Shown: in pieces, positions 9,037 to 55,310 of the stretch
Numbering within the stretch: the first letter of the stretch is position 1
Layout of the letters: each line of letters starts with the position of its first letter
Source: a virus
Direction: 5' to 3' (one strand)
IMG/VR virus record: IMGVR_UViG_3300027733_000033
DNA: 64,000 nt
The notes under the pieces: generated by a model
What the model was told of the DNA's origin: nothing
Seen by the model: the letters and a program-made list of their open reading frames with translations, nothing else
Databases searched by the model: none
Translations under genes and position numbers: made by a program

Positions 9037-9044
9037 AATATACA

Positions 9045-9118
9045 CTCCAAATAATTTAAGGTTTAACTTCATTACGGTCTATTATACTATGTTTTATAAA
9101 AAAGTAAAGCTTTATTTT
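9045..9118 (-). repeat. Type-A early promoter/leader cassette (PeSL-like), representative copy
   Basis: Minus strand reads AAAATAAAGCTTTACTTTT..AGTATAATAGA..TAATGAAGTTAAACCTTAA..GGAG. Similar copies lie near 10090, 21992, 23877, 25240, 27698, 29448, 32295, 33003, 33422, 33797, 37189, 45702, 51322, 52093 and 53936. Confidence 0.9.
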
Positions 9119-9662
9119 AAATTATTTTAATAAAATTAGGAACAGGTCGTTGTTTCCAGCTGTGTAATTTAGTTTTACTGCCATTGTAATAGTTACGATA
9201 TGACTGAAGAGAGTCACCTTTGATGATATAGTCAACTGGCATAGCCGGCGTTGGCTCGGTAAACAATTTAGTCGAAATATTAAATGGAGCATACTGTAAT
9301 TTATCAACTAAGCCTGTACGCTCACATTTATGAGTTTTACCATATCGATAGGTATATTCTTTACACAACTCTACAAGTAAAGAATGCAACCACTGATAAT
9401 TTTCAAACCCATGACGAGCCCAAATAGCAGATGGGTGATTTATATGAGTCGCAGCATACAAAATATCTTCATATGAATTGTTAAGTTTCCAAACTTTTTT
9501 ATTACGACCTGAAGCTGAAACAGCCGCAGTTTCAACGCCGTCTAAAACACGATGCGCAGTTGATAATAACTGCGAATATTCAAGAATCATTTTGACGACA
9601 TGTTTGTCAACATGATATCTGGCACAAATAGATTGGTCGTAATCAAGATAAAATATGTTCAT
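9117..9662 (-). CDS. Pyrimidine-dimer DNA glycosylase (DenV-related family)
   Basis: MNIFYLD...DKHVVKMILEYSQLLSTAH...THINHPSAIW...EYTYRYGKTH. Confidence 0.8.
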   Translation of the reverse strand: MNIFYLDYDQSICARYHVDKHVVKMILEYSQLLSTAHRVLDGVETAAVSASGRNKKVWKLNNSYEDILYAATHINHPSAIWARHGFENYQWLHSLLVELCKEYTYRYGKTHKCERTGLVDKLQYAPFNISTKLFTEPTPAMPVDYIIKGDSLQSYRNYYNGSKTKLHSWKQRPVPNFIKII

Positions 9663-9667: not shown

Positions 9668-10063
9668 TTAGCCTAATAAAGATAAAAATTCGTATTCAGT
9701 AATTTTACTGTTCAATAAGGTGTCTAAAGCGCCTAACCTAGCCAAAGCAGAAAATGTACGTTTTAATTCATAAATATCGGTAGGAGAAGGCTCATCACCT
9801 AACGTTAGGATTTTAACGTGAAGAATTGTATATGACGAATGAAAGAAATTACTGACATACATTATATCTTTTTCACGTTGAGTTAATTCTACAATCTCAA
9901 ACAATTTTGTAAACTGGATATCGTTATCAGCAAAAGGCTGATCCCATAAATTAGGATTGGTTTGTTTGTAATACTTATTAGTTAATTCCATTGTTTGAGA
10001 ATTACTATTTGGTTTCTCTAACGCTTCAACTAGTCCTAACGCTACTTCGTATGCTGATTTCAT
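9668..10063 (-). CDS. Hypothetical early protein
   Basis: ORF behind tandem promoters. Confidence 0.65.
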   Translation of the reverse strand: MKSAYEVALGLVEALEKPNSNSQTMELTNKYYKQTNPNLWDQPFADNDIQFTKLFEIVELTQREKDIMYVSNFFHSSYTILHVKILTLGDEPSPTDIYELKRTFSALARLGALDTLLNSKITEYEFLSLLG

Positions 10064-10155
10064 AATTTACACTCCAATTTAACTAAAGATAACTTCATTA
10101 CGATCTATTATACCTTAAATGACTCAAAAGTAAAGCTTTATTTTAAGGCTTAATG

Positions 10156-10236
10156 ATATTTTTAAGCGCTTAACCTCAATTCACGCCCGACTAGGCTATT
10201 ATACGTGTTTGGGTGTATAAAGTAAAGTTTTATTTT
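10156..10236 (-). repeat. Type-B promoter/leader repeat, copy 1
   Basis: atatttttaagcgcttaacctcaattcacgcccgactaggctattatacg; also at about 29053, 44708 and 54002. Confidence 0.9.
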
Positions 10237-10237
10237 T

Positions 10238-10346
10238 ACTAAATATTTTGTACAAAAAAAGCCACTCGCGGGATTGCAGTCCCCAGTGGCACTAATCATC
10301 CTAACATTAATTACGAGAACTAACATGACCAGCACAAGTATTTATA
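10238..10346 (+). promoter_or_regulatory. Endonuclease leader element: late promoter ACTAAATA, covarying stem-loop, antisense TATAAATA
   Basis: GCCACT-CGC-GGGA-TTGCAG-TCCC-C-AGTGGC; homologous elements at 15061, 22046 and 55311. Confidence 0.8.
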
Positions 10347-11022
10347 CTCCCATCACACCCACCTATCTGTACATCAAACAACACTCCATCACAAAAAAGA
10401 AATACTTCGGTAAGACCACTAGAGACCCATACACATACAACGGCTCAGGGGTTTATTGGACCAATCACATCAAGAAACACAGCAAAGAACACATCGTAAC
10501 TTTATGGGTTTCTGAGTTGTATTATGACACGTCAATTGTAGAAGTAGCCTTAAAGTTTTCTTCAGATAACGACATAGTCAAATCTAAAGAATGGGCAAAT
10601 ACGGAACCAGAAAACGGGTTAAATGGATGCCCTCCTGGCACAAAACGTTCAGAAGAAGCTAAGATTAATATGCGTAAGCCTAGATCAGAAGAAGCTAAGG
10701 TTAATATGCGTAAATCAGAAGAAACTAAAGCCAAAATGCGTAGACCTCGTTCAGAAAAAGCTAAGGCTAATATGAAAGGCAGAGCTCCAAATAAAGGTAA
10801 ATCCACATCACAAGAAACTAAAGACAAAATGTCTGCTAATATGACAGGCAAAAAACGTGGTCCATATAAAAAATCAAGTAAACCTAGAAACCCACGCTCA
10901 GATAAAGGTAAACCTAGAAAACAAGTCACATGTCCACATTGCGGTAAACTGGAGGTGAAAATGGAATGAAAAGATGGCATTTTGATAAATGTAAAGCAGA
11001 AACATCAGTCTCTTTATTTTAA
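10325..11022 (+). CDS. Seg-like GIY-YIG homing endonuclease with NUMOD3-like repeats (frameshift in the C-terminal Zn ribbon)
   Basis: YLYIKQH...YFGKT...YNGSG, (R/H)SEEAK.NMRKP repeats and CPHCGK. One A is missing near 10946 relative to paralog 55394; the restored tail reads TGGENGMKRWHFDKCK. Confidence 0.85.
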
Positions 11023-11061: not shown

Positions 11062-12648
11062 ATGGATTTAAATAATACTGGATACAACGGCAACCGAAAT
11101 TTAAAGCAGGTTGGGTTACCAATTGAGTTCACCGCAGAGCGACTCGAAGAATACATTAAATGTAAAAACGATCCTGTCTACTTCATAATAACATACTGTA
11201 AGGTTGTTTCGTTAGACAGAGGATTTGTTAATTTTGATTTGTATGAATACCAAGAAAGATTCATTAACGCTATTCATACAAATAGAAAGGTCGCTGGAAT
11301 GTTTAGTCGCCAGCAGGGTAAAACAACAACATCTGCTGCTTACATATTACATTACGTTACATTTAACGACCATAAAACGGTTGCGATTTTGGCTAATAAA
11401 AGCGCCGCCGCCCGTGAAGTTATGAGCAGAATACAGCTCATGTTTGAAGCCTTACCTATATGGCTTCAACAGGGAATTAAGACTTGGAATAAAGGTGACA
11501 TTGAATTAGAAAACGGATCTAAGATTTTCACATCTGCTACGACAGGATCTGGTATTCGTGGTAAATCTGTTAACATGTTATACATTGATGAGATTTCATC
11601 AATTGCTAATACGATTGCTGAAGAGTTTTTCACGTCAACTTACCCCGTTATTTCTTCTGGTAAAGATACTAAAATTTTGATGACGTCAACCCCAATTGGT
11701 TATAACTATTGGTGGAAAGTATGGAACGAAGCTGAAAATGGAATAAATGGCTTTTTACCCTTTAAGGCAGAATGGCACGAACATCCTGAACGTGATGAAA
11801 AGTGGGCAGCTGAACAAAAGGCGTTTCTTGGTGAAGTTAAATTTAATCAAGAAGTATTATGCCATTTCCTCGGTTCTGCGAACACATTAATTGATGCAAC
11901 GACACTAGGATCATTATCTCCTAAGCCGTTTGTGTACTCAACGCAAGACGGCTTAGACATCCTAGAAAAGCCTACACCAAACCATTTTTACGCTTTAGTC
12001 GCAGACACCTCTGAGGGAGTCGGTGGGGACTTCTCAGCGTTTGTTCTAATTGATATTACCGTTTATCCGTTTAAATTGGTAGCTAAGTATAAAAACAATA
12101 AGATTAGTCCTATGTTATATCCTAACGTAATACACAAAGTTGCTTTAGAATATAACAACGCCTATGTTTTGATTGAGATTAATAAATCTCAAGAAGTCGC
12201 TATGATATTGTATGATGAATACGAATACGAGAATATGATATCAGTTAAACGAGGAACAAAGGGACAAGTGCCAGTTGATGGTGGATACAGCAAAGGTTTA
12301 TTAGGCGTTACCACTGATAAAAAAGTTAAACGTCAGGGATGTCAAGCCTTAAAATCTTTGATGGAAGAAAAGAAACTACTGGTTTTTGATACAGACGTTA
12401 TCGGTGAATTCACTACCTTTATCGAGAAAAATGGCTCGTTTGCCGGCGATTCTGGTGCTCATGATGATTTGGTGATGTGTTTAGTATTATTTGGATGGTT
12501 AACATCAAGTGAATATTTTAAAGATATGACTAATATGGATACAAGAAAAGAATTATATTCTGCGCATATGGATATGATTGAATCATCTATGCTACCTGTT
12601 GGATGGTTAGTTGATGGCACAGAACAACCGCAATATGTAAATTTTTAG
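11062..12648 (+). CDS. gp17: Terminase large subunit
   Basis: GYNGNRNLK, SRQQGKTT (Walker A), YIDE (Walker B), TSTP, ADTSEGVGGDFS and HDDLVM. Confidence 0.96.
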   Translation: MDLNNTGYNGNRNLKQVGLPIEFTAERLEEYIKCKNDPVYFIITYCKVVSLDRGFVNFDLYEYQERFINAIHTNRKVAGMFSRQQGKTTTSAAYILHYVTFNDHKTVAILANKSAAAREVMSRIQLMFEALPIWLQQGIKTWNKGDIELENGSKIFTSATTGSGIRGKSVNMLYIDEISSIANTIAEEFFTSTYPVISSGKDTKILMTSTPIGYNYWWKVWNEAENGINGFLPFKAEWHEHPERDEKWAAEQKAFLGEVKFNQEVLCHFLGSANTLIDATTLGSLSPKPFVYSTQDGLDILEKPTPNHFYALVADTSEGVGGDFSAFVLIDITVYPFKLVAKYKNNKISPMLYPNVIHKVALEYNNAYVLIEINKSQEVAMILYDEYEYENMISVKRGTKGQVPVDGGYSKGLLGVTTDKKVKRQGCQALKSLMEEKKLLVFDTDVIGEFTTFIEKNGSFAGDSGAHDDLVMCLVLFGWLTSSEYFKDMTNMDTRKELYSAHMDMIESSMLPVGWLVDGTEQPQYVNF

Positions 12649-12694
12649 GAAAAATATGATTAACTTTAAACAGTTTAGAGAACAGCTCGACGAA
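12643..12694 (+). repeat. 52-bp RBS + capsid-targeting leader cassette, copy 1
   Basis: ttttaggaaaaatATGATTAACTTTAAACAGTTTAGAGAACAGCTCGACGAA, identical to 13502..13553. Confidence 0.95.
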
Positions 12695-13492
12695 ACAATG
12701 CTAGTTGAATCTTCACAAAAAGAACAATTTATCTATAACTCTCATGGTAGCCATGCCTTATTAAAAAGAAAATCTATAAATTTTTCATTAAAAGAAAATG
12801 TTGTTAATCCAAGTTTTGAAAAACATTTTCTAGGGCATAAAACTGATAAGTCATACAGTGAAAATCACAGAGATGAAATATCGAAAAGTAGGGAAATCGT
12901 AGGGAAATTAATAAAAAATAATCCTATATCAAAAGATGCTAGAGAATACATAAGCTCTTATATGCTGAATGATTCTTCAGGACTGACAAAAAGATTATTG
13001 GATACACATAAGCATGTTATGAAACATAATAATCTGGATAATTTTAGAAAAGATAAAAAGCCAGATAAAAAAGATAAAATTATCCAAGGATTGGATAATT
13101 ATGCATTCTCTCCAGCATCTGAAGATTTTGATTCTTATTCTGGCGTAAAATTTGATATTAGTAAAGTAAAGCCGGCTGGAAAAAGTAAAAATGGAAATCC
13201 TATTTATCATCAACCAACATTTATGTCTTCATCTACAAGTAAACATATAGCAAATGAATTTACTGATGATGAATCACCAATTAGACATATATTCCATTGG
13301 AAAAATAAAAAAGGCGATTCTATTTCAGCAGTAGCAGGCGTTCATCATGATGAGCACGAAATTTTATTAAATAGAGGAAATAAAAATACTTATATTGAAC
13401 ATTTAGGTCATAAGGATTATACTGATAAAAATGGAAAAATTGTTAGGGTTCATGAAGTAAGAAAAGTTTCAGATTTAGAAATTAACAACTAA
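12656..13492 (+). CDS. Virion-packaged ADP-ribosyltransferase-like protein (Alt/C2-C3 type)
   Basis: Leader MINFKQFREQLDE; SYSG (Ser at the usual Arg position), FMSSSTS and DEHEILLNRG (ExE) motifs. Confidence 0.75.
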   Translation: MINFKQFREQLDETMLVESSQKEQFIYNSHGSHALLKRKSINFSLKENVVNPSFEKHFLGHKTDKSYSENHRDEISKSREIVGKLIKNNPISKDAREYISSYMLNDSSGLTKRLLDTHKHVMKHNNLDNFRKDKKPDKKDKIIQGLDNYAFSPASEDFDSYSGVKFDISKVKPAGKSKNGNPIYHQPTFMSSSTSKHIANEFTDDESPIRHIFHWKNKKGDSISAVAGVHHDEHEILLNRGNKNTYIEHLGHKDYTDKNGKIVRVHEVRKVSDLEINN

Positions 13493-13553: not shown

Positions 13554-14975
13554 GCCAGAAAAAACCCTGAGATGAACCCTAGAATCTCAGCATACGAAGC
13601 ATTGTTACCGTATAAAGATGACGATAACGCATTTATACATTTTACCAATTTGAACAAACTTGGTATTAACCCTTTATCTGGATTTGAAACCCCAGTCGGT
13701 GTTTACGCTTACCCGCTAAAACAAGTTTGGAATCTTTATAAAGTAGATAAAGCAAAATCTTTATCTGTGTTACCATTTGGTTCTGATAGAGCCTATATTC
13801 AATTATTCAAATGGAACGGCAAAGGCAAATTAGTCAGCGATTTAAAAAAGGATTATACAAGCACAGATTATGATTCTGATATGCGTAAGTTGAGAACAAT
13901 CTATAAGGATATTCAGTCTAAAACTGATACATCAAAAGCATGGAATGCTTTAGTTAAAGGCATTTTTAAACACAAATTAGAAATTCCAGATGATTTTGAA
14001 GAAGGCAATGTCGTCAATATAACTCACCTTTTGGATACTGTGTTTGGTTCAGATAAAGTTCGTCGCGGCATAACAATCAAAGATAGTCCTAGAACAAAGC
14101 CTATTTTTGATGATATACTGAAAGCCGGTAAAGTGTATATGAAAGATAAAAAATCTGATTCAAATTGGGATAAGTTTAGTAAGAAATTTGAACTTTACCA
14201 TATTGAACCACCTCCCCGTATGGCAATTCTTTTTGTGAGTGCAGATGAACTTGAATATGAAATTGAAGATGCTATAAGAAACTCAGACAAATATCGTACA
14301 TGGGAAATTAACGTAAACAAGCCGGCTATTTATAGGGAACTAAAACCGCTTCAAGACGCATACAATAATTCTCTATTTAATGTTGATGATATAATTAATG
14401 CCGCTACAGAAAAAACTCGCAACCCATCACCAGCAACTTGTTTCTGGAATGTAACCCGTTGGTTGTCTAATTATGGGATAGATCCTAATGTCAGAAGATT
14501 TACCAGTGATGTTATGTTTGCTAAAGACGGGCATCATAGACAAATTCAAGCGCCTACGTTAGATACAGCAGAAATTAAAGCCGGCTCTAGACAATGGGGA
14601 AATCTGTTACGAAAACTAGGTTACGCGGGATTTGTTGATAGAAGAGCAGATGGCATTATACACCCTGCTGAACCTTGTCAGGCTGTATTTACCGGTATGG
14701 ATTACATTGAGTTGATTGACACTGTGCTTAATAAGGATTATGCCAAACTTAAACACGATGATGAAGTAACATTAGAAAATTTAAAAAATGCTTCTCATAA
14801 AGACTTGATGGATTATATTATGAATTGGAACGCTAATGCTATTGACAAAATTGATATGAAATATTTGAAATGGATAAATGATTCAACAGATTTAGCCAAA
14901 ATGGTTGTTGGTATGATGATTAAAGGTTCTACAACGACAAAAATAACCCAAGAAATTGATTATATCAAAAGCTGA
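13515..14975 (+). CDS. Virion-packaged protein with possible divergent ART-like domain
   Basis: Same leader; FIHFT..LGINP..TPVGVYAYPL and LRKLGYAGFVD..GIIHPAEPCQAVF motifs. Confidence 0.55.
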   Translation: MINFKQFREQLDEARKNPEMNPRISAYEALLPYKDDDNAFIHFTNLNKLGINPLSGFETPVGVYAYPLKQVWNLYKVDKAKSLSVLPFGSDRAYIQLFKWNGKGKLVSDLKKDYTSTDYDSDMRKLRTIYKDIQSKTDTSKAWNALVKGIFKHKLEIPDDFEEGNVVNITHLLDTVFGSDKVRRGITIKDSPRTKPIFDDILKAGKVYMKDKKSDSNWDKFSKKFELYHIEPPPRMAILFVSADELEYEIEDAIRNSDKYRTWEINVNKPAIYRELKPLQDAYNNSLFNVDDIINAATEKTRNPSPATCFWNVTRWLSNYGIDPNVRRFTSDVMFAKDGHHRQIQAPTLDTAEIKAGSRQWGNLLRKLGYAGFVDRRADGIIHPAEPCQAVFTGMDYIELIDTVLNKDYAKLKHDDEVTLENLKNASHKDLMDYIMNWNANAIDKIDMKYLKWINDSTDLAKMVVGMMIKGSTTTKITQEIDYIKS

Positions 14976-14980
14976 TAATA

Positions 14981-15013
14981 TGACGCCCAGTTCCTATTTG
15001 GTTCTGGGCGTCA
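14981..15013. terminator. 10-bp hairpin terminator
   Basis: TGACGCCCAG...CTGGGCGTCA after the stop codon. Confidence 0.75.
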
Positions 15014-15060
15014 AAATATTAATCGTTCAATATCAATACAACCGTCTAAAATTAAAATTT

Positions 15061-15158
15061 ACTAAATAATTATATAGTAAGATTCGCGATATTACCAGTA
15101 TCCAATCTTTCTAATACTTTGATTTTAATGGAGGAAGTACCAGCTATGAATATTTATA
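15061..15158 (+). promoter_or_regulatory. Endonuclease leader element (HNH copy)
   Basis: ACTAAATA; AAGATT-CGC-GATA-TTACCAG-TATC-C-AATCTT; CTAATACT...AGTACCAG; antisense TATAAATA at 15151-15158. Confidence 0.75.
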
Positions 15159-16618
15159 CGATTTTAAGTTCAATGAAACATAATAAACTTCAATTAAACA
15201 GATATTTAAAGTTTATTGATTGGTGTTCAAAAACAAATATTAACGGCGTTGAATTTGCACATTTGCACCATATATGTCCTAAATCTATGTTTCCTATGTA
15301 TTCAAATTTAACTACAAATAAATGGAATGGAATAAAGTTAACACATAGACAACATTACATTGCTCATTTAATGTTAACTAAAGTTTACCCAAAATCTATA
15401 AAAATGACAAGGGCATTTATATGTATGAACGCTAGTAGTCCACAATTCATAAAAATACATTCAAAATGTTATGCTAGTAATGTAGCAAAATTAAATGGGA
15501 AAGTTATAGCAAAAAATAAAATCACCGGAAAATATGAACACATCACATCTGAAGAATACGCTAAAGGTAATCATACGCATAATAGCGTAGGTATGGTAAC
15601 TGCAATTGATGCTGCTGGAAATATTATAAAGGTGACATCAGAAAAATTCAATTCTACAGAAAATTTAAAGGGTGTAAAAGCCAATACCGTTTCTGTTATA
15701 TTTAAAGATAACAGCACTGGGCATGTAACAAAAGAACAATTTGATTCTAATGATGAATTAGTTGGTGTGTTAAATGGAAAAGTATATGCAAAAAATAATG
15801 AATCAGGAAATTATGAATGGATAACTCCAGAAATATATTCTAAAGGCGATTATACACATTTTAATAAAGGTTTGATCACTGGTAAAAATAAAATCACCGG
15901 TGATGTCGAAAGAATAACTTCTGAAGAATACGCTAAAGGCAATCATACGCATAATAGCGTAGGTATGGTAGCTATATCATTAAATGATGGAACATACGCT
16001 AAAGTTACAAAGGAAGAATTTAATAAAGGCGGCTATAAAGGAGTAAATAGTGGTTATGTTATAGCAAAAAATAAAATCACCGGTGAATCTAAAAGGATAA
16101 CTTCTGAAGAATATTTTTTGAATTGTGACTATACCACACACCATTCAGGAACAGTTATAGCAAAAAATAAAATCACCGGTGATGTCGAAAGAATAACTTC
16201 TGAAGAATACGCTAAAGGCAATCATACACACAGCACAACAGGAACAGTTACAGCAAAAAATAAAATCACCGGTGATGTCGAAAGAATAACTTCTGAAGAA
16301 TACGCTAAAGGCAATCATACACATGATAATAAAAATATGGTCACTGTAGTATTAAATGATGGAACATACGCTAAAGTTACAAAGGAAGAATTTAATAAAG
16401 GCGGCTATAAAGGAGTAAATAGTGGAAAATGTTCTGTTCGTTCTATACACAAAATAGGCTCATATAGAATACCCTGTGGGACACTAAAAGATTACGAAGT
16501 GACCGTATATAAAAAAATTGTTTATGTTCATAATAGTTCAACTAATGAAGAAAAAATTTTATCTAAAAATGAATTCGTTGATGAAAAATGGAAACTGGGA
16601 AAACTAGAAAAAAATTAA
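15146..16618 (+). CDS. HNH endonuclease with about 10 tandem 30-32-aa repeats
   Basis: HLHHICPKS...LTHRQHYIAHLML nuclease, then G.V.AKNKITG..ERITSEEY.KGNHTH repeats. GGAGG RBS precedes the ATG at 15146. Confidence 0.85.
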   Translation: MNIYTILSSMKHNKLQLNRYLKFIDWCSKTNINGVEFAHLHHICPKSMFPMYSNLTTNKWNGIKLTHRQHYIAHLMLTKVYPKSIKMTRAFICMNASSPQFIKIHSKCYASNVAKLNGKVIAKNKITGKYEHITSEEYAKGNHTHNSVGMVTAIDAAGNIIKVTSEKFNSTENLKGVKANTVSVIFKDNSTGHVTKEQFDSNDELVGVLNGKVYAKNNESGNYEWITPEIYSKGDYTHFNKGLITGKNKITGDVERITSEEYAKGNHTHNSVGMVAISLNDGTYAKVTKEEFNKGGYKGVNSGYVIAKNKITGESKRITSEEYFLNCDYTTHHSGTVIAKNKITGDVERITSEEYAKGNHTHSTTGTVTAKNKITGDVERITSEEYAKGNHTHDNKNMVTVVLNDGTYAKVTKEEFNKGGYKGVNSGKCSVRSIHKIGSYRIPCGTLKDYEVTVYKKIVYVHNSSTNEEKILSKNEFVDEKWKLGKLEKN

Positions 16619-16642
16619 AATTTATGATTGTTTGAATTTTAT

Positions 16643-16682
16643 AAATTGGGTGCATGCCTTAATAAACATTGCACCCAATTTT
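16643..16682. terminator. Bidirectional hairpin between convergent genes
   Basis: AAATTGGGTGCA...TGCACCCAATTT. Confidence 0.75.
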
Positions 16683-18398
16683 TTATTTATTGTGGATAAT
16701 CACAGAAAAATCATTTTGTTTTTCTACTTGTATAACATCGTCAAACATATCTTTGACGTGTTCATCGTGAGATATAATAAATACACTAATCCCTATTTGC
16801 GATTTCAACACACCTATTAATGAAGTAGAACCTTCTCCATCTAAAGAACCAGAAAATATCTCATCTAATATTAAAAGATTCGTATTAGCAGAATTCTTAA
16901 GTTTAGCAATTTCTCTCCAAGCAAATAAAAGCGCTAAATCAATTCTAGATTTTTCACCCTCAGAAAAATTATCATATGTCATTGTATCTCTATATCTTGA
17001 TTTGATAACCTCGTTAAATTGCTCATCTAAGTTAAAGTCACAATAGAAATCCATAACAGCAAGATATTTGTTAATTAAGGTATTCATCAGTGGTAAATAC
17101 TCACGAATGATAGCCGTTTTAATACCGCCGTCTTTCAGCAATAATACCCCTACATCTTCAACACCCTTTTGCTCAACCAATATCTTTTTGCGGTTTATTA
17201 GCCTAATAGCTTCTTCAACCAAATCTTTAAGTGTATTTTTCTCAGCTTCGATATTTTGAGTCGAGTTAACAGATTCCAATAAAGATTGGTTGAGTTTTGT
17301 TATCCTGGACTCAATCACATTTATTTCAGATTGTAAACCTCTAACATCATTTCTAGCTGTAACAATATCTTTCTCAGTTTCGATTATCCCAGCTAACCTT
17401 TTTTCCTGTTCTTGGTATTCCGTTCCAGACTGAATAAACAAATCATTCATATCCTTTTTACTAGATTCTAAATCGCTTAATACGCCGCCGGAATGTGTAT
17501 GTGGAATATTTTGCTGACAGGAAGGACAGCTTGCGTTTTCATTAAAGAACACAATCGATTTATCTAAGGTATCAATCTCATGCTTAACCTTTCTCATTGT
17601 ATTGTTAAGACTTTTAAGTTTAGCATTAACCGCATCTTTTTCTAAAACTGAAGGAGTTAACCCATCAATTATAGCTTGAGCCGCCGCTATTTTTGCCTGC
17701 CGATTTTCTACTGTAGTTGTATCTTCTTTGATATTCGCTTTAATAGCATCAATTTCAGACTGCTTATTGACTTCTAAATGTGCTATAATTCTTTGCTGCG
17801 ATTCAACCTTATTTTTAGCAATTTTTAATGCCGATTCAATATAGGTCAGTTCTTCTTTAGTTTTAGATAGCCGCTCTTTTAATAGTTGATTCATTATAGA
17901 AAAGATACGAATATCCAGAATATCTTCAATAATCTCTCTACGCTGACTTGAACCCATTTTCATAAACGGTGTAAACGTGGCTGAACCAAGAATAACGACC
18001 TGTGTAAACGTTTTCATATTCATCTTAAGAATCTGTTGCTCTAAAACAACCTGATAATCCTTAACAGCAGAATCTTGATTGATTAGTTCATCATTACGAT
18101 AAATCTCAAAGGTGTTAGGCTTAATGCCACGAACAACTTTATAGTAAGCGCCGCCCTCCTCAAATTCAATCTCAACGACACAATTTTTCTTATTAATACT
18201 ATTAACCAAACCGCCCTTACTGATGTTTCTAAATGGTTTACCGAATAGAGCAAAGGTTAAAGCACAAAGTACAGAACTCTTGCCATTTCCATTACCGCCT
18301 ACGATTAATGTTTGCTTGCCGGTATCTAATCTAATTTCATTAAATTGGTTGCCGGTTGATAAGAAGTTTCTCCATCTTATTGTCTTAAAATTAAGCAT
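16683..18398 (-). CDS. gp46: Recombination endonuclease ATPase subunit (Rad50/SbcC-like)
   Basis: WRNFLSTGN, GGNGNGKS, CPSC hook, FSEGEK, LILDE and IISH. Confidence 0.96.
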   Translation of the reverse strand: MLNFKTIRWRNFLSTGNQFNEIRLDTGKQTLIVGGNGNGKSSVLCALTFALFGKPFRNISKGGLVNSINKKNCVVEIEFEEGGAYYKVVRGIKPNTFEIYRNDELINQDSAVKDYQVVLEQQILKMNMKTFTQVVILGSATFTPFMKMGSSQRREIIEDILDIRIFSIMNQLLKERLSKTKEELTYIESALKIAKNKVESQQRIIAHLEVNKQSEIDAIKANIKEDTTTVENRQAKIAAAQAIIDGLTPSVLEKDAVNAKLKSLNNTMRKVKHEIDTLDKSIVFFNENASCPSCQQNIPHTHSGGVLSDLESSKKDMNDLFIQSGTEYQEQEKRLAGIIETEKDIVTARNDVRGLQSEINVIESRITKLNQSLLESVNSTQNIEAEKNTLKDLVEEAIRLINRKKILVEQKGVEDVGVLLLKDGGIKTAIIREYLPLMNTLINKYLAVMDFYCDFNLDEQFNEVIKSRYRDTMTYDNFSEGEKSRIDLALLFAWREIAKLKNSANTNLLILDEIFSGSLDGEGSTSLIGVLKSQIGISVFIISHDEHVKDMFDDVIQVEKQNDFSVIIHNK

Positions 18399-18406: not shown

Positions 18407-19462
18407 CTATGTCAACGAAACATTAACAGCTTCTAAAAACAAACTATTCATCAAATTCTTCACGCTTTCTTTATCCATATCTGTATCAACATTATCGATG
18501 TAATCTGATAGTATTTGTTTAGTGTCAGCTAGGTCAATCTTTTCGTCGATATTACCGTTAGAAAACTCAGACATATCCTCGATAATTTTAATGTCATAAC
18601 AGCCGGCGCTATATAGCCGTTTCAAAAAATTATCATATCCAAATAAATCGTTTTTGTTCACGATAATCAATTTGACATATTTCTCGGTTAGAGTTGACAC
18701 GTCAAATTTAGAGTAATCTGTAACCGTATCATCATATTCAAGTTTCTCAAATATGGTATAAGGATTTTGAATAAACTGAGTTTCACCGGTATCAGTATCG
18801 AATATCCAAAAACCTTTAGGGTCATTGAAGTCAGACCATGTAGTATCATATGGAGTTCCGGTATAAAGGATATTCCCTTTTACTGATTTTGTATGATAGT
18901 GCCCTGATACAACCAATTTATACCTACCATACATATCAACAGGATACCCGTCGTGAGCATCAACTCCTTTATACATTTGAAAGCCGGTAAACCCAAAATG
19001 TCCTACGCAATAATCAGATTTTGAGTTAGATACAAAGGAAGCAACTTCAGCCTTATTATCGTTACACACCCATGGGATAAAATCAATTTTTAAGCCGGCA
19101 AATTCTACTGCTGTTGGTTCATCAAAAATATACACATTTGAATACTCATTAAGCAATAGTGCTGTTGAGTTAACCTGAAGAGATTCTCTATAATAAATAT
19201 CATGATTTCCTAATAAGGTATAGAAAGTCATATTGTTAGCTTTCATTGGGTCAAATATAACCCGTTTGGCTTCATATAAAGATAACAGGTTTATTGCTTT
19301 TCTGCTATCAAATAAGTCACCAAGTTGGATAATCGTGGTTATATTATGTTCTTTAAGGTAAGGGAAAAACACATTTGAAAAGAATTTTTCAGAATGTTTA
19401 TGGAAGTTTGTAGAGTTATTTCTAACGCCTACGTGAACGTCACCAAGCCAGCATATTTTCAT
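18407..19462 (-). CDS. gp47: Recombination endonuclease nuclease subunit (Mre11/SbcD-like)
   Basis: GDVHVG, LGDLFD, GNHD and SGHYH. Confidence 0.96.
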   Translation of the reverse strand: MKICWLGDVHVGVRNNSTNFHKHSEKFFSNVFFPYLKEHNITTIIQLGDLFDSRKAINLLSLYEAKRVIFDPMKANNMTFYTLLGNHDIYYRESLQVNSTALLLNEYSNVYIFDEPTAVEFAGLKIDFIPWVCNDNKAEVASFVSNSKSDYCVGHFGFTGFQMYKGVDAHDGYPVDMYGRYKLVVSGHYHTKSVKGNILYTGTPYDTTWSDFNDPKGFWIFDTDTGETQFIQNPYTIFEKLEYDDTVTDYSKFDVSTLTEKYVKLIIVNKNDLFGYDNFLKRLYSAGCYDIKIIEDMSEFSNGNIDEKIDLADTKQILSDYIDNVDTDMDKESVKNLMNSLFLEAVNVSLT

Positions 19463-21971: not shown

Positions 21972-22045
21972 TATAATTCTCCCAATAATTTAACTTCATT
22001 AAACTCTATTATATCTATTTTTATAAAAAGTAAAGCTTTATTTTT

Positions 22046-22158
22046 ACTAAATATTTTGTACAAAAAAAGCCACTCGCGATGTTACCAGCATCCAGTAGCA
22101 CTAATCATTCCAATGACAATTTAAGGTAAAACTATCATGACCAGCACAACTATATATA
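22046..22158 (+). promoter_or_regulatory. Endonuclease leader element (second GIY-YIG copy)
   Basis: ACTAAATA; GCCACT-CGC-GATG-TTACCAG-CATC-C-AGTAGC; CTAATCAT...ATGACCAG. Confidence 0.8.
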
Positions 22159-23848: not shown

Positions 23849-23940
23849 TTCAAACTCCGAATAATTTAATTAAGGTTTAACTTCATTAGACTCTATTATA
23901 CTATGTTTTTAACAAAAGTAAAGCTTTTTTTAAATAAATT

Positions 23941-25215
23941 TTATTTAATGTGGTCAAACATATCAGCTTCGTCACGGTCAATTCGTACTTCAAGGTATCT
24001 AGGTAAGAATAATGAATATGTATCAGAACCCTTAGATTTAATTTTGGTGTTATACTTAACCTCGATAATTTTACCTAAGAAATCACCATTTTTTCTATCG
24101 TCATCATTTAAACCTGAACCAACCGATACCTTTACTTTACCGTCTTCAGACTCACATAATAACGCACCAATTTGACCTTCATATTTAGAACCTACCGAGC
24201 CACCTTGGATAGCAACTACTCTTAATGAAGTAGTTTCTTCACCTTTAAATTTAATTTGAGATTGCGAACGTTTTGGTTCCCAAATAGCTTCCATTGATTT
24301 AAGGATAATGCCCTCAAAACCTTGAGCATAATAATCTTCATAAATTGCTCTGGCTTCATCTAATGAATCAACAACAAAACTAGGGACAACTGATAATTTA
24401 CCAGTTAACCCTAATGTGGTCAAATAGTCAAATCTTTCAACATAAGGCGTTGGGTCTTTTTGTTCAACCCAGTTATTATAAGGAATAATATCCCAAATAG
24501 TCATAGTAATTTTAGCCGCTTCAGCTTCGCCTTTGTTAGCCTTATTTAAAATCCCGTTACCAGTTTGGCGGTCAAGCTCAACACCGTTTTCTGATACTAA
24601 TAACTCACCATCAAATACTACATCAGCGCCTTTAGCCGCTTCAATAAATTCTTTTTCAAGATTACCTAATAGGTCAAAAGTTTTACCATTACGAGAATAA
24701 AAAGTAACCGCGCCGGCGTTAACTACAACATTACATCTAAGACCATCAAGCTTTTTTTGTACGATAGCAGGATAAACCATCTTAGCTAACACTTTATCGT
24801 TCATAGGAGTGCACAACATAGTGTCAAAGGTAGGAATTAAATCTTTCCAGATTTTGTTTACCGTAGGAGTAGAAACGCCACAGTCTAAATCTTTTTTAAT
24901 GATTAGTTCGATAACTTTAGCATCATCAGCTGAAACGTCAGAAAGGATATTAGATAAAAATTCGATAGCTTTGTTGCCGGTAACTTTACGGTCAGCCAAA
25001 TCGTTCATACGTTCTAAGGCTTCAATCAACTCAACGTTTTTACCGTTTGTAGAGTATGCGGGAATTTTGCGTTGGTAATACTGGATATGTGACGCTAACG
25101 CACGAATCATAACAGATTTCAATAATGAGTTATCAACATGCTTTTTAAGGATAGCTTCTTTTTCAAGTCTAGAATTAGTAGATCTTAACTCAGTGATAAC
25201 AGATAATATAGACAT
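23941..25215 (-). CDS. gp30: ATP-dependent DNA ligase
   Basis: QKKLDGLR, FDGEL, EGIILK, IKFK, VGSG and LFLPRY. Confidence 0.95.
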   Translation of the reverse strand: MSILSVITELRSTNSRLEKEAILKKHVDNSLLKSVMIRALASHIQYYQRKIPAYSTNGKNVELIEALERMNDLADRKVTGNKAIEFLSNILSDVSADDAKVIELIIKKDLDCGVSTPTVNKIWKDLIPTFDTMLCTPMNDKVLAKMVYPAIVQKKLDGLRCNVVVNAGAVTFYSRNGKTFDLLGNLEKEFIEAAKGADVVFDGELLVSENGVELDRQTGNGILNKANKGEAEAAKITMTIWDIIPYNNWVEQKDPTPYVERFDYLTTLGLTGKLSVVPSFVVDSLDEARAIYEDYYAQGFEGIILKSMEAIWEPKRSQSQIKFKGEETTSLRVVAIQGGSVGSKYEGQIGALLCESEDGKVKVSVGSGLNDDDRKNGDFLGKIIEVKYNTKIKSKGSDTYSLFLPRYLEVRIDRDEADMFDHIK

Positions 25216-25293
25216 TTTTAACTCCAATTTAATTACGGTTTAACTTCATTAAGATCTATTATACTATGATTTTTGTAAAAGTAAAGCTTTATT

Positions 25294-25794
25294 TTAAATT
25301 ATTTTTGCTAATTTTAAAATAGTTTCAGCATTATTTTTAAAGAGAATACCAGTACCGCCGGCGGCTTCCCATGCTGAGATGTTTCTAGGTAAGTCATCAA
25401 TCAATATATCGCTAGGATCCTTAACATATTTTGCCTTTTTAGAACCACCAATTACTGTATTCACTTTGATGTCGTTATCTAGGTTACTTTTAACCCACGC
25501 AATTTTATCAGCCTTTGCTGTTGCTAATTTACCATGCGGCAAAGGTAAGCTTGTTAAAATTTCTAAATTGATTGAACCAGAATTATGTAATCGCAATAGG
25601 TGTGAAAATAGCGTTTTGTAATTAGGCAAAGGCTCTAAATGTAAAAACAAATGGTCAACTTCAGCTAACCTTGCCCATGCATTTTTCATACCTAACTCAG
25701 CGAAAAATTCTTTTGTTGGCATATTAACTAATGATTCAACCGCACCGTCAAAATTAGTCATAACCCCATCTAAATCTAAATATACATTTAGCAT
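25294..25794 (-). CDS. 5'(3')-deoxyribonucleotidase (HAD family)
   Basis: YLDLDGVMTNF, ILTS and LIDD...WEAAGG.GI. Confidence 0.85.
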   Translation of the reverse strand: MLNVYLDLDGVMTNFDGAVESLVNMPTKEFFAELGMKNAWARLAEVDHLFLHLEPLPNYKTLFSHLLRLHNSGSINLEILTSLPLPHGKLATAKADKIAWVKSNLDNDIKVNTVIGGSKKAKYVKDPSDILIDDLPRNISAWEAAGGTGILFKNNAETILKLAKII

Positions 25795-27072: not shown

Positions 27073-27669
27073 TTAGTATTTGTTTGCAACAAATTTTACT
27101 AATTTATCTAATAATGCTTCAGTTTGACTATCTAAAATATTTGCATAATCTTTGTAAATCATAGTTTTATATTTATGGCAGCATGAGCATAGGGTGTGTA
27201 GGTTTTCTGGCGAATTGTATTCTTCTTTAGAATACCCATTTAATTTTGCTCTATTTTTAGGGTAAACATGGTCGACTTCAAGTTGACCTGTTAACATAAT
27301 AGTAGTAGTGCAACGAAAGCCTAATCTACCGTCAACATTTTCGCAATAGGGTTTTACTGCCCAACGGTATTCGTGTTTAGAATTTCTATAATCGTTTACA
27401 GTATCAAATCCTTCTTTTTCAGCTAATTCTTCTTCTTTAGCATATTTGCGTTCCAGAGCATTAGCGTATCCTTCTTTTTCAGCTAATTCTTCTTCTTTAG
27501 CATATTTGCGTTCCAGAGCATTAGCGTATCCTTCTCTTTCAGCTAATTCTTCTTGTCTTTCATAATGATGTTTTGTACAAACTCTACGATAAATTGTATT
27601 TCCGTTTTTTTGTTTACCGGCAGTTGCTCTTTTGTTTTTACATCCACGAACTTCACAAATATGACTCAT
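27073..27669 (-). CDS. HNH endonuclease with N-terminal Cys/His motif and a 20-aa tandem repeat
   Basis: CENVDGRLGFRC, LEVDH...NLHTLCSCCH.YKT; preceded by an early promoter. Confidence 0.8.
   Translation of the reverse strand: MSHICEVRGCKNKRATAGKQKNGNTIYRRVCTKHHYERQEELAEREGYANALERKYAKEEELAEKEGYANALERKYAKEEELAEKEGFDTVNDYRNSKHEYRWAVKPYCENVDGRLGFRCTTTIMLTGQLEVDHVYPKNRAKLNGYSKEEYNSPENLHTLCSCCHKYKTMIYKDYANILDSQTEALLDKLVKFVANKY
27408..27554 (-). repeat. 60-bp coding tandem repeat (about 2.4 copies)
   Basis: Encodes EEELAEKEGYANALERKYAK. Confidence 0.9.
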
Positions 27670-27966
27670 AATATACGCTCCAAATTATCATTACGGTTTA
27701 ACTTCATTACGATCTATTATACTACTATTTTATGAAAAGTAAAGCTTTATTTTTACCAGCGGCGCTTACCAAACCCTATAGAAATGCTGAAGCATAAAAC
27801 GATAATGTGTAGCTCAATGGGATAAACGTCATTATCCCATCTAACGCCTACCCCAATGTGTTTTTCAATCATGAAATAGATTCTGCCAGAACCAAACATC
27901 TATATGTACAAAAAAACAAATGGAACCAAAATTACAAATACAACTGAGAAAAACAAAAGTAAAATA

Positions 27967-28794: not shown

Positions 28795-29054
28795 AATTCA
28801 TCACCTTGTTTAGTAAGTTTTAACCAGAAATTGTGTACATAAATTGAACTAGCGATACCAAAAGAACCGCCCATAACATAAGCAATCGATTCATATAAGC
28901 CGGCGTTCGGCGTTGCTTTATATAAAAAGATTTGAAGTGAGCCTACCATTAACGAAGTAACAAATGACGGTATCACTTCTTTGTTCTTAACCAATTGACT
29001 TTGAAAGCCTAATAACATAATAATAAGAAAACTAGAACCAAATAACATTAACAT
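28791..29054 (-). CDS. Small multi-pass membrane protein
   Basis: Three hydrophobic segments; follows a type-B leader. Confidence 0.65.
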   Translation of the reverse strand: MLMLFGSSFLIIMLLGFQSQLVKNKEVIPSFVTSLMVGSLQIFLYKATPNAGLYESIAYVMGGSFGIASSIYVHNFWLKLTKQGDEL

Positions 29055-29134
29055 ATTTTTAACCCGCTTACCCTCAATTCACGCCCGACTAGGCTATTAT
29101 ACGCTTCTAGGAGTAAAAAGTAAAGTTTTATTTT
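29053..29134 (-). repeat. Type-B promoter/leader repeat, copy 2
   Basis: cctcaattcacgcccgactaggctattatacg. Confidence 0.88.
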
Positions 29135-29175
29135 CACGCATAAAAAACCCAGCGGATTAGGCTGGGTCGTAAAAT

Positions 29176-31188: not shown

Positions 31189-31300
31189 TTTTATCTCCGG
31201 CTTATTCATTACGATCTATTATACTTGGTTTTTTCCAAAAGTAAAGCTTTATTTTAAATTATTTTCAAACGTGAAAAAGCCGGCACTAAGCCGGCTAAAT

Positions 31301-31878: not shown

Positions 31879-32264
31879 TTGATTTTCTCGTAAATATGGT
31901 AACAGTAAACCAGTTCAATTTCTGGCTCATCATAAATGTATTCAGTAGTAGGCGTTTGGGTACCGATATAATCGCCCCATTTGTGCCATCTCCAACCTTC
32001 ATATCTTGGTTGACCAGATTTAGTGATTTTATGCAACAGCACTACGAATTCACAGTCAGGTGATAACAGTTCAGGAATGACTTCAAGTAAATTATCAATT
32101 CCATCACATACGCCGTAATACCACGCAAAATCATTTGTTAAAAATTCAGGATCTTTAATATATGATTTAGAACGCTCGAGTGTATGTAACTGAAACGAAT
32201 AATCGCTTAGATAAACGCCTTCTTGAAGTTCATTTTCTGTAATCATTGGGTTACTTTTTAACAT
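31875..32264 (-). CDS. Conserved phage hypothetical protein
   Basis: YGVCD...GWRWHKWGDYIG...EYIYDE. Confidence 0.7.
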   Translation of the reverse strand: MLKSNPMITENELQEGVYLSDYSFQLHTLERSKSYIKDPEFLTNDFAWYYGVCDGIDNLLEVIPELLSPDCEFVVLLHKITKSGQPRYEGWRWHKWGDYIGTQTPTTEYIYDEPEIELVYCYHIYEKIK

Positions 32265-32347
32265 AATATACACTCCGGATAATTCATTAAGGTTTAACTT
32301 CATTAGACTCTATTATACTCGGTTTTTATCAAAAGTAAAGCTTTATT

Positions 32348-32623
32348 TTAAATTATCTTGACTCTTTTAAAGATTTCTACATCAAGCTCATCGACATTCT
32401 TTATAAAGGTATCACCTAAGTCATCATAGATAATTAACGACCAATTTCCCTCAAAATCGATGTGTTCGTCGATATAATTCACTTCTACTTTGTGTCCGTA
32501 ATTCCGAATAACAATACGATAATCTTCAATTGGAATACATCTATACCGCTGTCCGTTGGTTTCTTCAGGTACAGGATACGGTTTTAGATAAGGCTTTAAA
32601 TCTTTAAATTTTACAGTTTTCAT
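32348..32623 (-). CDS. Hypothetical protein
   Basis: ORF. Confidence 0.6.
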   Translation of the reverse strand: MKTVKFKDLKPYLKPYPVPEETNGQRYRCIPIEDYRIVIRNYGHKVEVNYIDEHIDFEGNWSLIIYDDLGDTFIKNVDELDVEIFKRVKII

Positions 32624-33257: not shown

Positions 33258-33395
33258 CTATTGATCAAGGTTTACCATAAATTCGATTACGCTTTCAACT
33301 TCATCAATTGACAATCCTTCTTCAAAGGCGATTTCGCGAATAGACATATTGTCATAAACATACATACTGTATATTGCTTCATATAATTCTTTCAT
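33258..33395 (-). CDS. Small HTH-like protein (45 aa)
   Basis: Hand-translated MKELYEAIYSMYVYDNMSIREIAFEEGLSIDEVESVIEFMVNLDQ; behind a type-A cassette. Confidence 0.55.
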   Translation of the reverse strand: MKELYEAIYSMYVYDNMSIREIAFEEGLSIDEVESVIEFMVNLDQ

Positions 33396-33495
33396 TTTAA
33401 CACTCCGATTAATTTAAGGGATAACTTCATTACGATCTATTATACTTGGTTTTATGGAAAAGTAAAGCTTTATTTTATCTTTTTTAAAAATAAAT

Positions 33496-37000: not shown

Positions 37001-37159
37001 CTATTCTTGGCAATCTTGAGCGCTACGGGTTGACCAACCGCGACCACGTTCTTCTTTCATACGAACCATTTGGTCAATGACTTCAGGGTCTTTAAGCAAT
37101 TTTTCAAATTCAACTTGAGGATCGTACATTTCGCCGGTAACTCTATCTTTAACTAACAT
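37001..37159 (-). CDS. Small early protein (52 aa)
   Basis: Hand-translated MLVKDRVTGEMYDPQVEFEKLL...; behind a type-A cassette. Confidence 0.55.
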   Translation of the reverse strand: MLVKDRVTGEMYDPQVEFEKLLKDPEVIDQMVRMKEERGRGWSTRSAQDCQE

Positions 37160-37287
37160 ATCAAACACTCCAACAATAATTTATAGGTTAACTTCATTAG
37201 ACTCTATTATACTTGATTATTTCTAAAAGTAAAGCTTTATTTTAAATTATTTTTGGTAATAAAAAACCGGCACGAAGCCGGTTTAGT

Positions 37288-44692: not shown

Positions 44693-44707
44693 ATTGGTAC
44701 CTATAGA

Positions 44708-44788
44708 ATATTTTTAAGCGCTTAACCTCAATTCACGCCCGACTAAGCTATTATACGCGTGCAGGAGTAAAAAGTAAAGTTTTATTTT
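44708..44788 (-). repeat. Type-B promoter/leader repeat, copy 3
   Basis: atatttttaagcgcttaacctcaattcacgcccgactaagctattatacg. Confidence 0.88.
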
Positions 44789-45045
44789 ACATCAAATGTT
44801 TCTTTAATTATATCGCGAATCCGTTCTAATGCATCATAAGTCAAATCAGCGGCTAACTCACCAACTGGACTGTTACCTACAGAAATAGGATATTGCTCAA
44901 TGATATTTAAACATTCTTGAATAACTAATCGAGCAAAAAGTTCTTCATCAAATTTTTTACCTTGACCATAAGAATTGCCATACGCATCCATTTGATTATA
45001 ATATCGCATGGCTTTATTTTTAAATTCATTAATTTTATCGTTCAT
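44782..45045 (-). CDS. Hypothetical protein
   Basis: ORF. Confidence 0.6.
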   Translation of the reverse strand: MNDKINEFKNKAMRYYNQMDAYGNSYGQGKKFDEELFARLVIQECLNIIEQYPISVGNSPVGELAADLTYDALERIRDIIKETFDVK

Positions 45046-51092: not shown

Positions 51093-51293
51093 TTATACCC
51101 CAAATTGTAAGGTATAACCTAAAACTTTCAGCGCCGCCTTTGCTTTACGTTTTGCTTCAGTTTTAGTGCTACCATTGAAGTATAACTTTTCCATAGAGTA
51201 ATATCCTTCAATTGGGACATACACTTTAGCAGTAAAAAGTTTTCCAAGAATTCTTGAACGGGTTTCAATAATTTCAGCGGTTACAGTAGACAT
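51093..51293 (-). CDS. Hypothetical early protein
   Basis: ORF behind a type-A cassette. Confidence 0.6.
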   Translation of the reverse strand: MSTVTAEIIETRSRILGKLFTAKVYVPIEGYYSMEKLYFNGSTKTEAKRKAKAALKVLGYTLQFGV

Positions 51294-51422
51294 TTTATAC
51301 ACTCCAATTAATTTAAGGGATAACTTCATTAAGATCTATTATACTACTATTTTATGAAAAGTAAAGCTTTATTTTAAATTATTTTTAGGCATGAAAAAGC
51401 CGACATATAGCCGGCTTAATTA

Positions 51423-55275: not shown

Positions 55276-55310
55276 ACAATTTCCATATGTTAAGTTAAAA
55301 TTAGTATTTT

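Follow-up and report, generated by a model that had tools for sequence, protein, structure and literature searches.

A putative homing-endonuclease cassette with a tandem array of zinc-free repeat modules at the 3′ end of a T4-like gp46 gene

What does a long array of similar short units do behind the nuclease head of a phage endonuclease? The question is raised by ORF 15146-16618 (plus strand), in a viral stretch of 64,000 nucleotides called the window here. The original prediction, made from the sequence, saw in it an HNH nuclease followed by about ten repeats with near-identical cores and variable junctions, and proposed a modular DNA-reading array that follows TALE or zinc-finger logic, is retargeted by repeat recombination and has its target near gp46. 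The window, from an uncultured phage, is T4-like, with a terminase large subunit at 11062-12648, a gp46-like SMC/AAA protein at 16683-18398 and a gp47-like phosphoesterase at 18407-19462. The sequencing runs containing the stretch come from freshwater or lake metagenomes wherever a source is stated.

The endonuclease gene and its insertion in gp46

ORF 15146-16618 encodes a product of 490 amino acids in an intact frame. The gene and its leader contain the following elements.

15060..15068, plus strand: late-promoter-like sequence motif TACTAAATA
15079..15109, unstranded: covarying bulged hairpin, also found at three GIY-YIG-like genes in the window and at many further phage endonuclease genes
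15130..15134, plus strand: ribosome-binding site GGAGG, read from the sequence
15146..15487, plus strand: HNH nuclease head of MobE/MobD type, residues 1-114, from PHROG and tblastn matches and alignment
15151..15158, minus strand: antisense late-promoter consensus TATAAATA, a sequence motif within codons 2-5
15497..16423, plus strand: array of ten units, residues 118-426, delimited by sequence, each with a predicted beta-beta-alpha-beta fold
16424..16618, plus strand: C-terminal tail with two degenerate unit-like segments, common to the clade of P0003, P0030 and L010

The head matches phrog_655 (E 5.5e-19) and phrog_12434 (E 3.4e-13), and tblastn with it finds 152 phage records annotated MobE, MobD or HNH. 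Residues H41, H42, N61, H70 and H74, which we take to be catalytic from HNH chemistry, are invariant in seven of seven aligned proteins, and all five are intact here; a protein at 96% identity also has an intact frame. Judged by its sequence, ORF 15146-16618 is a Mob-type free-standing HNH homing endonuclease in all features that could be checked, namely intact HNH residues, an optional gene with empty alleles in relatives, and a gp46 that is polymorphic at the presumed site; nicking and biased inheritance would be its expected activities.

The hairpin leader is not specific to the repeat-array gene. The late-promoter-like motif and the bulged hairpin precede all four free-standing endonuclease genes examined in the window, and many relatives; hairpins and late promoters upstream of free-standing endonucleases have already been published (PMC2677866, PMC2988022). 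TACTAAATA occurs six times in the window, in four cases ahead of an endonuclease ORF; shuffled sequences contain 2.0 copies on average, and six copies are reached in 4 of 100. Over 21 aligned copies of the hairpin, 96.9% of cells are paired and 10 of 11 pairs have changed on both sides (0 of 500 shuffles), and Rfam gives no match at the gathering score. The antisense consensus TATAAATA recurs at 10339 and 55408, inside two other endonuclease genes, and as an 8-mer it shows no enrichment (10 found, 14.2 expected).

The gene belongs to a larger insertion, bounded and accompanied by the following features.

14975..15019, unstranded: terminator-like inverted repeat between convergent genes, present in L159 and L160; presumed terminator
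15019..15052, minus strand: candidate operator, a decayed remnant of the displaced gp46 end, recognized by its match to the empty alleles
15028..16854, unstranded: optional cassette of 1,827 nt (leader, endonuclease gene, terminator-like hairpin and replacement gp46 3′ end), absent from L159/L235 and L160
16643..16681, unstranded: terminator-like inverted repeat with 12 of 12 pairs, inside the cassette, separating the endonuclease gene from the replacement gp46 end; presumed terminator
16683..16856, minus strand: replacement gp46 C-terminus, 57 codons plus stop, recoded from the first codon after Walker B
16836..16868, minus strand: position equivalent to the proposed 33-bp binding site, with the best junction-to-triplet fit in both empty alleles (suggestive)

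The limits of the cassette are seen in several alignments. Against the relatives L159/L235, the blastn alignment breaks at 15027 and 16855; these carry gp46 (90% identity) and the upstream ORF (84%) with nothing between them, and L160 likewise lacks the cassette. Contigs of two runs from two other studies, X2 and X3, jump from 15027 to 16855, skipping the same 1,827 nt. In these runs the empty joint has depths of 138 and 788 and the cassette pieces depths of 2-6; both alleles coexist. The insertion is almost certainly a homing-endonuclease cassette. Since two relatives and two other samples carry the empty allele, its target probably lies at the gp46 3′ end, in line with the placement near gp46 proposed at the outset. 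The inverted repeat at 14975..15019 lies outside the cassette, since it is also present in the empty allele; a simple terminator scan calls no terminator at this position.

The 3′ end of gp46, an essential recombination gene, has been rewritten. Compared with L159, 33-45 of 60 nt are identical in each of four 60-nt windows across 16661-16900; farther upstream the count is 43-58 of 60. From the first codon after Walker B onward, L159 and L160 are alike and the gp46 of the window differs from both: both empty alleles read I-L-D-E-I-L-D-G-S-L-D-F-E-G-S, whereas the window reads I-L-D-E-I-F-S-G-S-L-D-G-E-G-S and is divergent to the stop. The candidate 33-bp site corresponds, in the empty allele, to the Walker B / D-loop codons L-D-E-I-L-D-G-S-L-D-F, and is altered in the window.

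On the other side of the cassette, the remnant is a nine-codon piece similar to I-L-D-G-S-L-D-F-E, fused to the N-D-stop with which the empty allele ends. Its best 26-mer match is 19 in L159 (12 of 3,000 shuffles as good) and 20 in L160 (1 of 3,000), against 16 in the window's own gp46 allele (1,488 of 3,000). The empty-allele comparison and the remnant together show that the insertion took place at Walker B, that the cassette supplied a new end for gp46, and that a nine-codon piece was left behind. The remnant lies 8 bp from the late-promoter-like motif. T4 intron endonucleases are described as keeping homing-site-like operators at late promoters (PMC2988022), and by analogy the remnant may be an autoregulatory operator; it is also possible that it is a plain leftover. 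Searches upstream of 14 other array genes, and in one fragment that has no DNA ahead of its gene, gave no convincing case of a remnant, and a search for operator-like matches elsewhere within the window returned the shared hairpin alone. At locus L125, a similar geometry is seen by eye in a split NAMPT-like gene.

A patchwork array from a large, uncatalogued repeat family

The architecture originally described, an HNH head followed by about ten tandem repeats, is what the protein contains: ten units of 31, 31, 31, 31, 31, 30, 32, 31, 31 and 30 residues, starting at 15497, 15590, 15683, 15776, 15869, 15962, 16052, 16148, 16241 and 16334, plus the two degenerate segments of the tail. Units 1, 4, 5, 7, 8 and 9 are of a longer A-type, units 2, 6 and 10 are of a B-type that returns every four units, and unit 3 is atypical. 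All eight variable junction motifs named earlier are present. Near-identity of the cores holds for units 5, 8 and 9, partly for 1 and 7, and for 6 versus 10, but units 2, 3 and 4 have diverged. At the DNA level the near-identity is confirmed, with 153 of 166 nt identical between 15885-16050 and the copy 372 nt downstream. Over the slightly longer stretch 15884-16053 the two copies differ at 13 of 170 nt, all inside 30 nt (15949-15978), a clustering with an exact p of 7e-10 (0 of 200,000 random placements).

Exact DNA tracts of 75 nt (units 6/10), 72 nt (units 8/9) and 65 nt (units 5/8/9) end at divergent junctions, and a 30-nt exact tract is common to junctions 1/2 and 5/6; by its sequence, one junction has itself been copied as this tract, from boundary 1/2 to 5/6 or the reverse. 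Because a single duplication cannot leave identical flanks on both sides of a divergent junction, the array is a recombination patchwork. As for the repeat recombination invoked in the original prediction, shared tracts and unit changes among relatives both indicate shuffled units. The array is probably genuine and not produced by assembly: in run X1, possibly the source sample, a 68-nt shared tract has a depth of 73.7 against 27.3-27.6 in unique flanks, i.e. about three copies, and the protein at 96% identity has the same ten units in the same order.

Among relatives, the heads of L010 and P0003 are identical and the array of L010 is shorter by one unit; L154 lacks exactly one 32-residue unit present in L144, a deletion that could possibly be an assembly collapse at a 47-nt repeat. 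Between P0003, P0030 and L010, the heads differ at 0-2 of 125-142 sites, the arrays at 21-30% and the tails at 40-49%. Faster evolution specific to the array was considered and rejected, because the tails diverge more than the arrays, in the manner of a polar mosaic; for the same reason the unit change between L010 and P0003 is attributed to general mosaicism.

The unit is absent from the libraries searched. Pfam has no model for it in the protein of ORF 15146-16618 (E up to 1) or in 64 of 170 relatives (E up to 0.01), NCBIfam gives no match to the repeat in the eight array proteins scanned, and a PDB sequence search with the repeat gives 0 matches. A viral contig scan with the protein found no match, the repeat alignment contains no stretch of sufficient conservation for scanning loci, and degenerate DNA patterns for the repeat are mostly false, with arrays in 3 of 9 viral loci and 13 of 61 metagenome loci. 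A profile built from 11 repeat regions reaches 1,118 clusters (50% identity) at E ≤ 0.001 among 1.84 billion representatives, 504 of them at 1e-10 and 92 at 1e-30; the best 150 of the 1,118 were retrieved. Of 170 repeat proteins examined, 169 carry 1-10 units, mostly 5-7, at a spacing of mostly 30-33 residues. An HNH or GIY-YIG head was recognized in 162 (138 by pattern and 24 by eye, four of the latter inside terminase inteins), while eight look headless or partial, so that the repeat is indeed a module attached almost only to nucleases. The consensus of 941 units is T/N-K-G-K-V-x-V-x-D-x-x-T-G-x4-I/V-S/T-K-E-E-Y/F-x-x-N. The logo of these units contains no conserved Cys/His pairs, and neither it nor the Pfam profiles reveal a CxxC...CxC zinc motif with a T5orf172 nuclease.

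Median unit identity is 27% within a protein and 26% between proteins, and a pair of units at ≥80% identity occurs in 8 of 157 family proteins. On these sequences the units are not homogenized in general, and ORF 15146-16618 is one of the recently homogenized exceptions. A literature search covering mainly article text outside subscription journals found no description of the repeat; the module and the precise insertion anatomy appear to be new.

The predicted fold of the unit, its charge and a possible DNA code

An AlphaFold2 model of units 4-9, computed from a 135-sequence alignment, has a pLDDT of 94.5 and a pTM of 0.66, against a pLDDT of 33.9 for a single-sequence fold. Each modelled unit is zinc-free, with two strands followed by a short helix and then a short third strand; the junction residues singled out earlier form a link of 4-5 residues to the next unit. 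The fold is predicted with confidence and contains no TALE-like helical hairpin. The unit may resemble the three-stranded-sheet DNA-binding domains of AP2 / integrase type. With the six units compared jointly, the model has no clear match among solved domains: Foldseek against the PDB gives 0 matches at E ≤ 0.001, and VIA-align over 48,161 chains gives one (Z 2.3), which does not imply a new fold. Atlas structure clusters that match are unnamed or labelled HNH/NUMOD3 alone (scores 0.76-0.80 for the array and 0.89-0.92 for the 96% relative). Predicted models of phage proteins do match, one of them a GIY-YIG nuclease and another annotated as MobE. The best superposition spans 193 columns (TM 0.78, rmsd 3.2) and suggests that successive units are arranged in a defined geometry.

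Over 1,051 units, the net charge per unit is +0.78 at the junction, +0.72 in the hairpin and -0.80 in the helix. Asp and Glu make up ≤1% at junction positions -4 and -1 and at exposed strand positions; junction positions -4 and -6 and the exposed strand positions hold small polar residues and are almost never acidic. Because these regions are basic or free of acids and the helix is acidic, the junction and one face of the sheet would be the parts that meet DNA. The whole array of ORF 15146-16618 has a net charge of +3 only. That the array binds DNA is very probable.

Whether it reads DNA was addressed by correlating junction similarity with n-mer similarity along gp46, under five junction definitions. 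At the breakpoint, all five give the best fit for n=3 in reverse orientation, i.e. with the head toward the gp46 3′ end. The two empty alleles have the n=3 maximum at one and the same position (r 0.56 and 0.63); the carrier's own allele gives a poorer fit (0.19-0.34), and with core similarity in place of the junctions the fit has no counterpart at the breakpoint. Permutations of unit order reach the register fit in 232 of 2,000 cases for n=1-6, 103 of 2,000 for n=2-6 and 26 of 2,000 for n=3 alone, and across all settings the register is not significant; the idea of a 3-bp register arose post hoc, and the two empty alleles are related to each other. Two of 47 other centres in gp46 equal the breakpoint fit, both with n=1. 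The L159 empty allele has a 12-bp periodicity at the breakpoint (0.6% of 161 neighbourhoods are as strong) that matches the 4-unit periodicity of the array; it is weak in L160 (33% of neighbourhoods as strong). Under a code of about 3 bp per unit, the 4-unit periodicity would mirror that of the gp46 Walker B / D-loop codons.

The 3-bp register did not recur at L125, which has 11 units, in internal or cross-protein scans, and a cross-protein scan of seven further arrays gave no consistent site. In the L010 cross-protein scan, one top match lies 7 nt upstream of the gene and is regarded as uninformative. The predicted correspondence between repeat order and sites in gp46 is suggestive at most: n=3 fits the breakpoint best, though weakly (permutation p about 0.05-0.12), and L125 and the seven other arrays lend no support.

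Comparisons between units and between orthologues bear on the junction. When both flanking cores are alike, junctions escape homogenization: their difference ratios are 0.70-0.81 and those of held-out core positions 0.46-0.66, in sets of 13-51 proteins that vary with the threshold; the helix N-cap and the helix end resist likewise. Between orthologues, junction positions -7..-3 are more conserved than matched surface positions (88/275 versus 252/595 differences, Fisher p 0.004, 12 pairs), with p 0.052 in a paired test over the 12 pairs. Most of this conservation comes from position -6 (8/55) and may be structural, and a narrower window, -6..-4, was picked after viewing the alignments. The junction triplet noted earlier (-5..-3) shows no significant conservation (61/165 versus 252/595, p 0.25), and the sheet face gives p 0.065.

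On balance, the units more likely than not contribute to sequence specificity, although a strict colinear register of 3 bp is doubtful. The wider proposal is rather unlikely on present evidence, namely that the module is a natural zinc-free colinear reader of about 3 bp, with a learnable code in junction and sheet-face residues, and that the nucleases retarget by swapping junction segments between homogenized cores. A code of one module to one word is weakly hinted at and is a live hypothesis.

Proposed mechanism, alternatives and known systems

The reading preferred here, and a likely one, is that of a free-standing Mob-type HNH homing endonuclease whose DNA-binding arm is made of tandem zinc-free beta-beta-alpha-beta modules. 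Late in a mixed infection, the array would wind along ∼30-36 bp of the conserved Walker B / D-loop codons of a cassette-free gp46, with the junction and the acid-free sheet face contacting DNA and the acidic helix facing outward. The specificity contributed by each unit would probably be loose and extend over a few base pairs, about 3 being the likeliest number. The HNH head would introduce a nick close by, with the 3′ side as the likeliest place, and the cassette would be copied across when repair uses the carrier as template. Immunity of the carrier would follow from the splitting of the site by the insertion and from the recoding of its gp46 end, and the remnant may act as an autoregulatory operator.

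An unlikely alternative takes the array as a mostly non-specific clamp or spacer, with specificity residing in the HNH head and tail and with junction diversity as a neutral by-product of conversion tracts that stop at mismatched junctions. It accords with the largely non-specific contacts described for the NUMOD arms of I-Bth0305I (PMC3239194), with the junction that was itself copied as a 30-nt tract, with unit numbers that range from 1 to 10 among family proteins, and with both the unconserved junction triplet and the failure of the 3-bp register to replicate. A clamp, however, sits less easily with small polar, almost never acidic residues at junction positions -4 and -6 and on the exposed strands, with a breakpoint fit that is lower for the recoded allele of the carrier and disappears if cores are compared instead of junctions, and with a retained remnant that spans the proposed binding codons. 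A TALE-like code, in which a hypervariable di-residue at the junction lets each unit read a single base and the scaffold is invariant, is very improbable. Identical cores with divergent junctions in ORF 15146-16618 recall it, and n=1 fits elsewhere in gp46 equal the n=3 fit (r 0.56-0.62), but these lie 217-332 nt or more from the breakpoint, near which n=1 reaches at most 0.38. Moreover, the predicted fold is beta-rich instead of a helical hairpin, many surface columns vary as much as the junction, and the few homogenized proteins (8 of 157) and the 27% and 26% unit identities leave TALE logic without its invariant scaffold. Zinc-finger logic, the other half of the original analogy, has in its favour the suggestive 3-bp register, which did not replicate at a second locus.

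It is also conceivable, but very unlikely, that homing has been lost and that the nuclease is resting or domesticated, e.g. as a repressor or a weapon against co-infecting phages, with gp46 as a landing place. In runs with both alleles the cassette-bearing one is rare (depth 2-6 versus 138-788), most relatives have Glu at the position two residues ahead of the HH pair whereas a His is present here, and domestication of such domains is documented (PMC10448857). Loss of homing is nevertheless at odds with an intact frame and five intact invariant HNH residues, an equally intact 96% allele and a gp46 end recoded exactly from the insertion point.

The stakes differ with the outcome. The repeat family is large (1,118 clusters), has a confident predicted fold and has no entry in the family and structure libraries searched. 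Because the insertion point is exact, two empty alleles are at hand and the candidate site is short, a transferable code in phage homing-endonuclease modules is testable. If true, it would give a compact zinc-free scaffold and, next to zinc fingers and TALEs, a third way of programming DNA recognition by protein, for which over a thousand natural examples exist; if false, a newly defined accessory domain would remain, together with a clear example of a homing cassette by which an essential gene has its end rewritten.

TALE repeats are helical hairpins of 33-35 residues with a near-invariant scaffold and a variable di-residue that reads one base each, and C2H2 zinc fingers hold zinc through two Cys and two His ligands and place a recognition helix in the major groove, covering ∼3 bp per unit. 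The array shares with both its tandem units of ∼30 residues and short linkers, with C2H2 fingers a possible 3-bp step, and with TALEs the shuffling through conserved cores. Unlike C2H2 fingers, its units have no zinc ligands, and the acidic helix (-0.80 per unit) argues against a recognition helix; unlike TALEs, they have no helical hairpin, no fixed variable di-residue and no Pfam TAL match.

Close to the present gene in organization are T4 MobE and the Mob family, with an N-terminal HNH head, a protein-specific C-terminal region (PMC2790892, PMC2988022), a free-standing gene beside an essential gene and the PHROG 655 match. The proposed mode is also Mob-like, in that the arm would bind conserved codons and the nuclease would act on a polymorphic stretch, and the presumed DNA-binding region of Mob proteins lies where ORF 15146-16618 has the repeat module (PMC2790892). 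MobE, which targets nrdB (PMC2790892, PMC2988022), differs in several respects: ORF 15146-16618 has ten tandem copies of an uncatalogued module, has its own late-type promoter whereas T4 mobE is described as promoterless, lies antisense to its target gene and brings a replacement gp46 C-terminus.

Homing endonucleases of the T5orf172 type carry CapR, DUF723-DUF4379 or RepA_N zinc-finger repeats and resemble the present family in their beads-on-a-string DNA-binding repeats, internal-repeat recombination, in-frame repeat deletion and domain swapping, and retargeting by repeat recombination has already been proposed for them (PMC10448857). The present family differs in its HNH/GIY-YIG heads, shorter units in up to 10 copies, predicted inter-unit order and lack of a Cys-based zinc motif. 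I-TevI, with its operator and NUMOD motifs, likewise has an extended modular binding arm and a homing-site-like sequence at a late promoter (PMC2988022, PMC3239194, PMC2677866); the candidate operator described here, in contrast, lies 8 bp from the promoter motif and not over it. The unit is not NUMOD1, NUMOD3 or NUMOD4 by Pfam; NUMOD2 is described as a helix-turn-helix (PMC3239194), and the unit has a single short helix in the model. Tandem NUMOD3 repeats do occur in neighbouring genes of the window.

Junction changes in the HNH repeat protein

P0002, an allele 96% identical to the HNH protein P0001, carries an identical V-to-A substitution in each of its two NSV motifs, which stand at junctions between the 30-32-aa repeat units (at the positions of P0001 residues 148 and 272). 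This match suggests a concerted change of the two junction copies. A protein annotated as a headless repeat protein is found in Campylobacter phage CP220 (CPT_0068; L096 3001-3960).

Optional genes and leaders in the window

Three stretches besides the HNH cassette appear as blastn gaps against L159/L235, the related contig that lacks this cassette. Because their stretches are absent from that contig, two GIY-YIG-like genes and a 278-aa ORF are optional.

Optional stretches, leaders and the 278-aa ORF
10249-11014, no counterpart in L159/L235
12695-13501, no counterpart in L159/L235
21987-22835, no counterpart in L159/L235
10237-10327 (+), leader of a GIY-YIG-like ORF
22045-22139 (+), leader of a GIY-YIG-like ORF
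55310-55396 (+), leader of a GIY-YIG-like ORF
12656-13492 (+), 278-aa ORF

The three GIY-YIG-like ORFs have the same promoter-plus-hairpin leader as the HNH gene; antisense TATAAATA lies within the first codons of two of them, and NUMOD3-type tandem repeats occur in both of the two ORFs checked. The 278-aa ORF found no match in Pfam, PHROG or NCBIfam. The motif order in its C-terminal part may be ADP-ribosyltransferase-like, and the 278-aa ORF has an N-terminal MINFKQFREQLDE in common with the adjoining 486-aa ORF.

Arrays in other loci

Walker B codons are a landing place used recurrently: terminase large subunits carry intein-like inserts with an HNH domain and repeat directly behind their Walker B motif. 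The repeat behind the HNH domain is of the P0001 type in the inserts of P0019-P0021, P0025 and L237 (2506-3897), and the terminases with such an insert include that of Campylobacter phage IBB35.

Arrays also accompany GIY-YIG genes. At L125 (1769-5216), an antisense GIY-YIG gene with 11 units splits a NAMPT/NAPRTase-like gene in two, and the S-V-x-A-S-E-H motif recurs as a decayed copy, seen by eye, directly upstream of the nuclease start. L154 (1527-5183) and L156 (591-3457) each hold two array-bearing GIY-YIG genes near one another; those of L154 lie on either side of an oppositely oriented 411-aa ORF.

Other repeats and tRNA genes in the window

Two families of intergenic repeats, ~80-130 nt long and present in many copies, are probably early promoters.

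Intergenic repeats (two families; approximate positions) and further features
9040-9134, 10061-10248, 23854-23947, 25221-25314, 27667-27753, intergenic repeats
29053-29136, 31205-31284, 32261-32359, 33390-33478, intergenic repeats
37156-37255, 44707-44806, 51286-51401, 53905-54046, plus others, intergenic repeats
57242-57985 (-), five tRNA genes
27408-27554, tandem repeat within ORF 27073-27669 (60-nt period, 2.5 copies, 98% matches)
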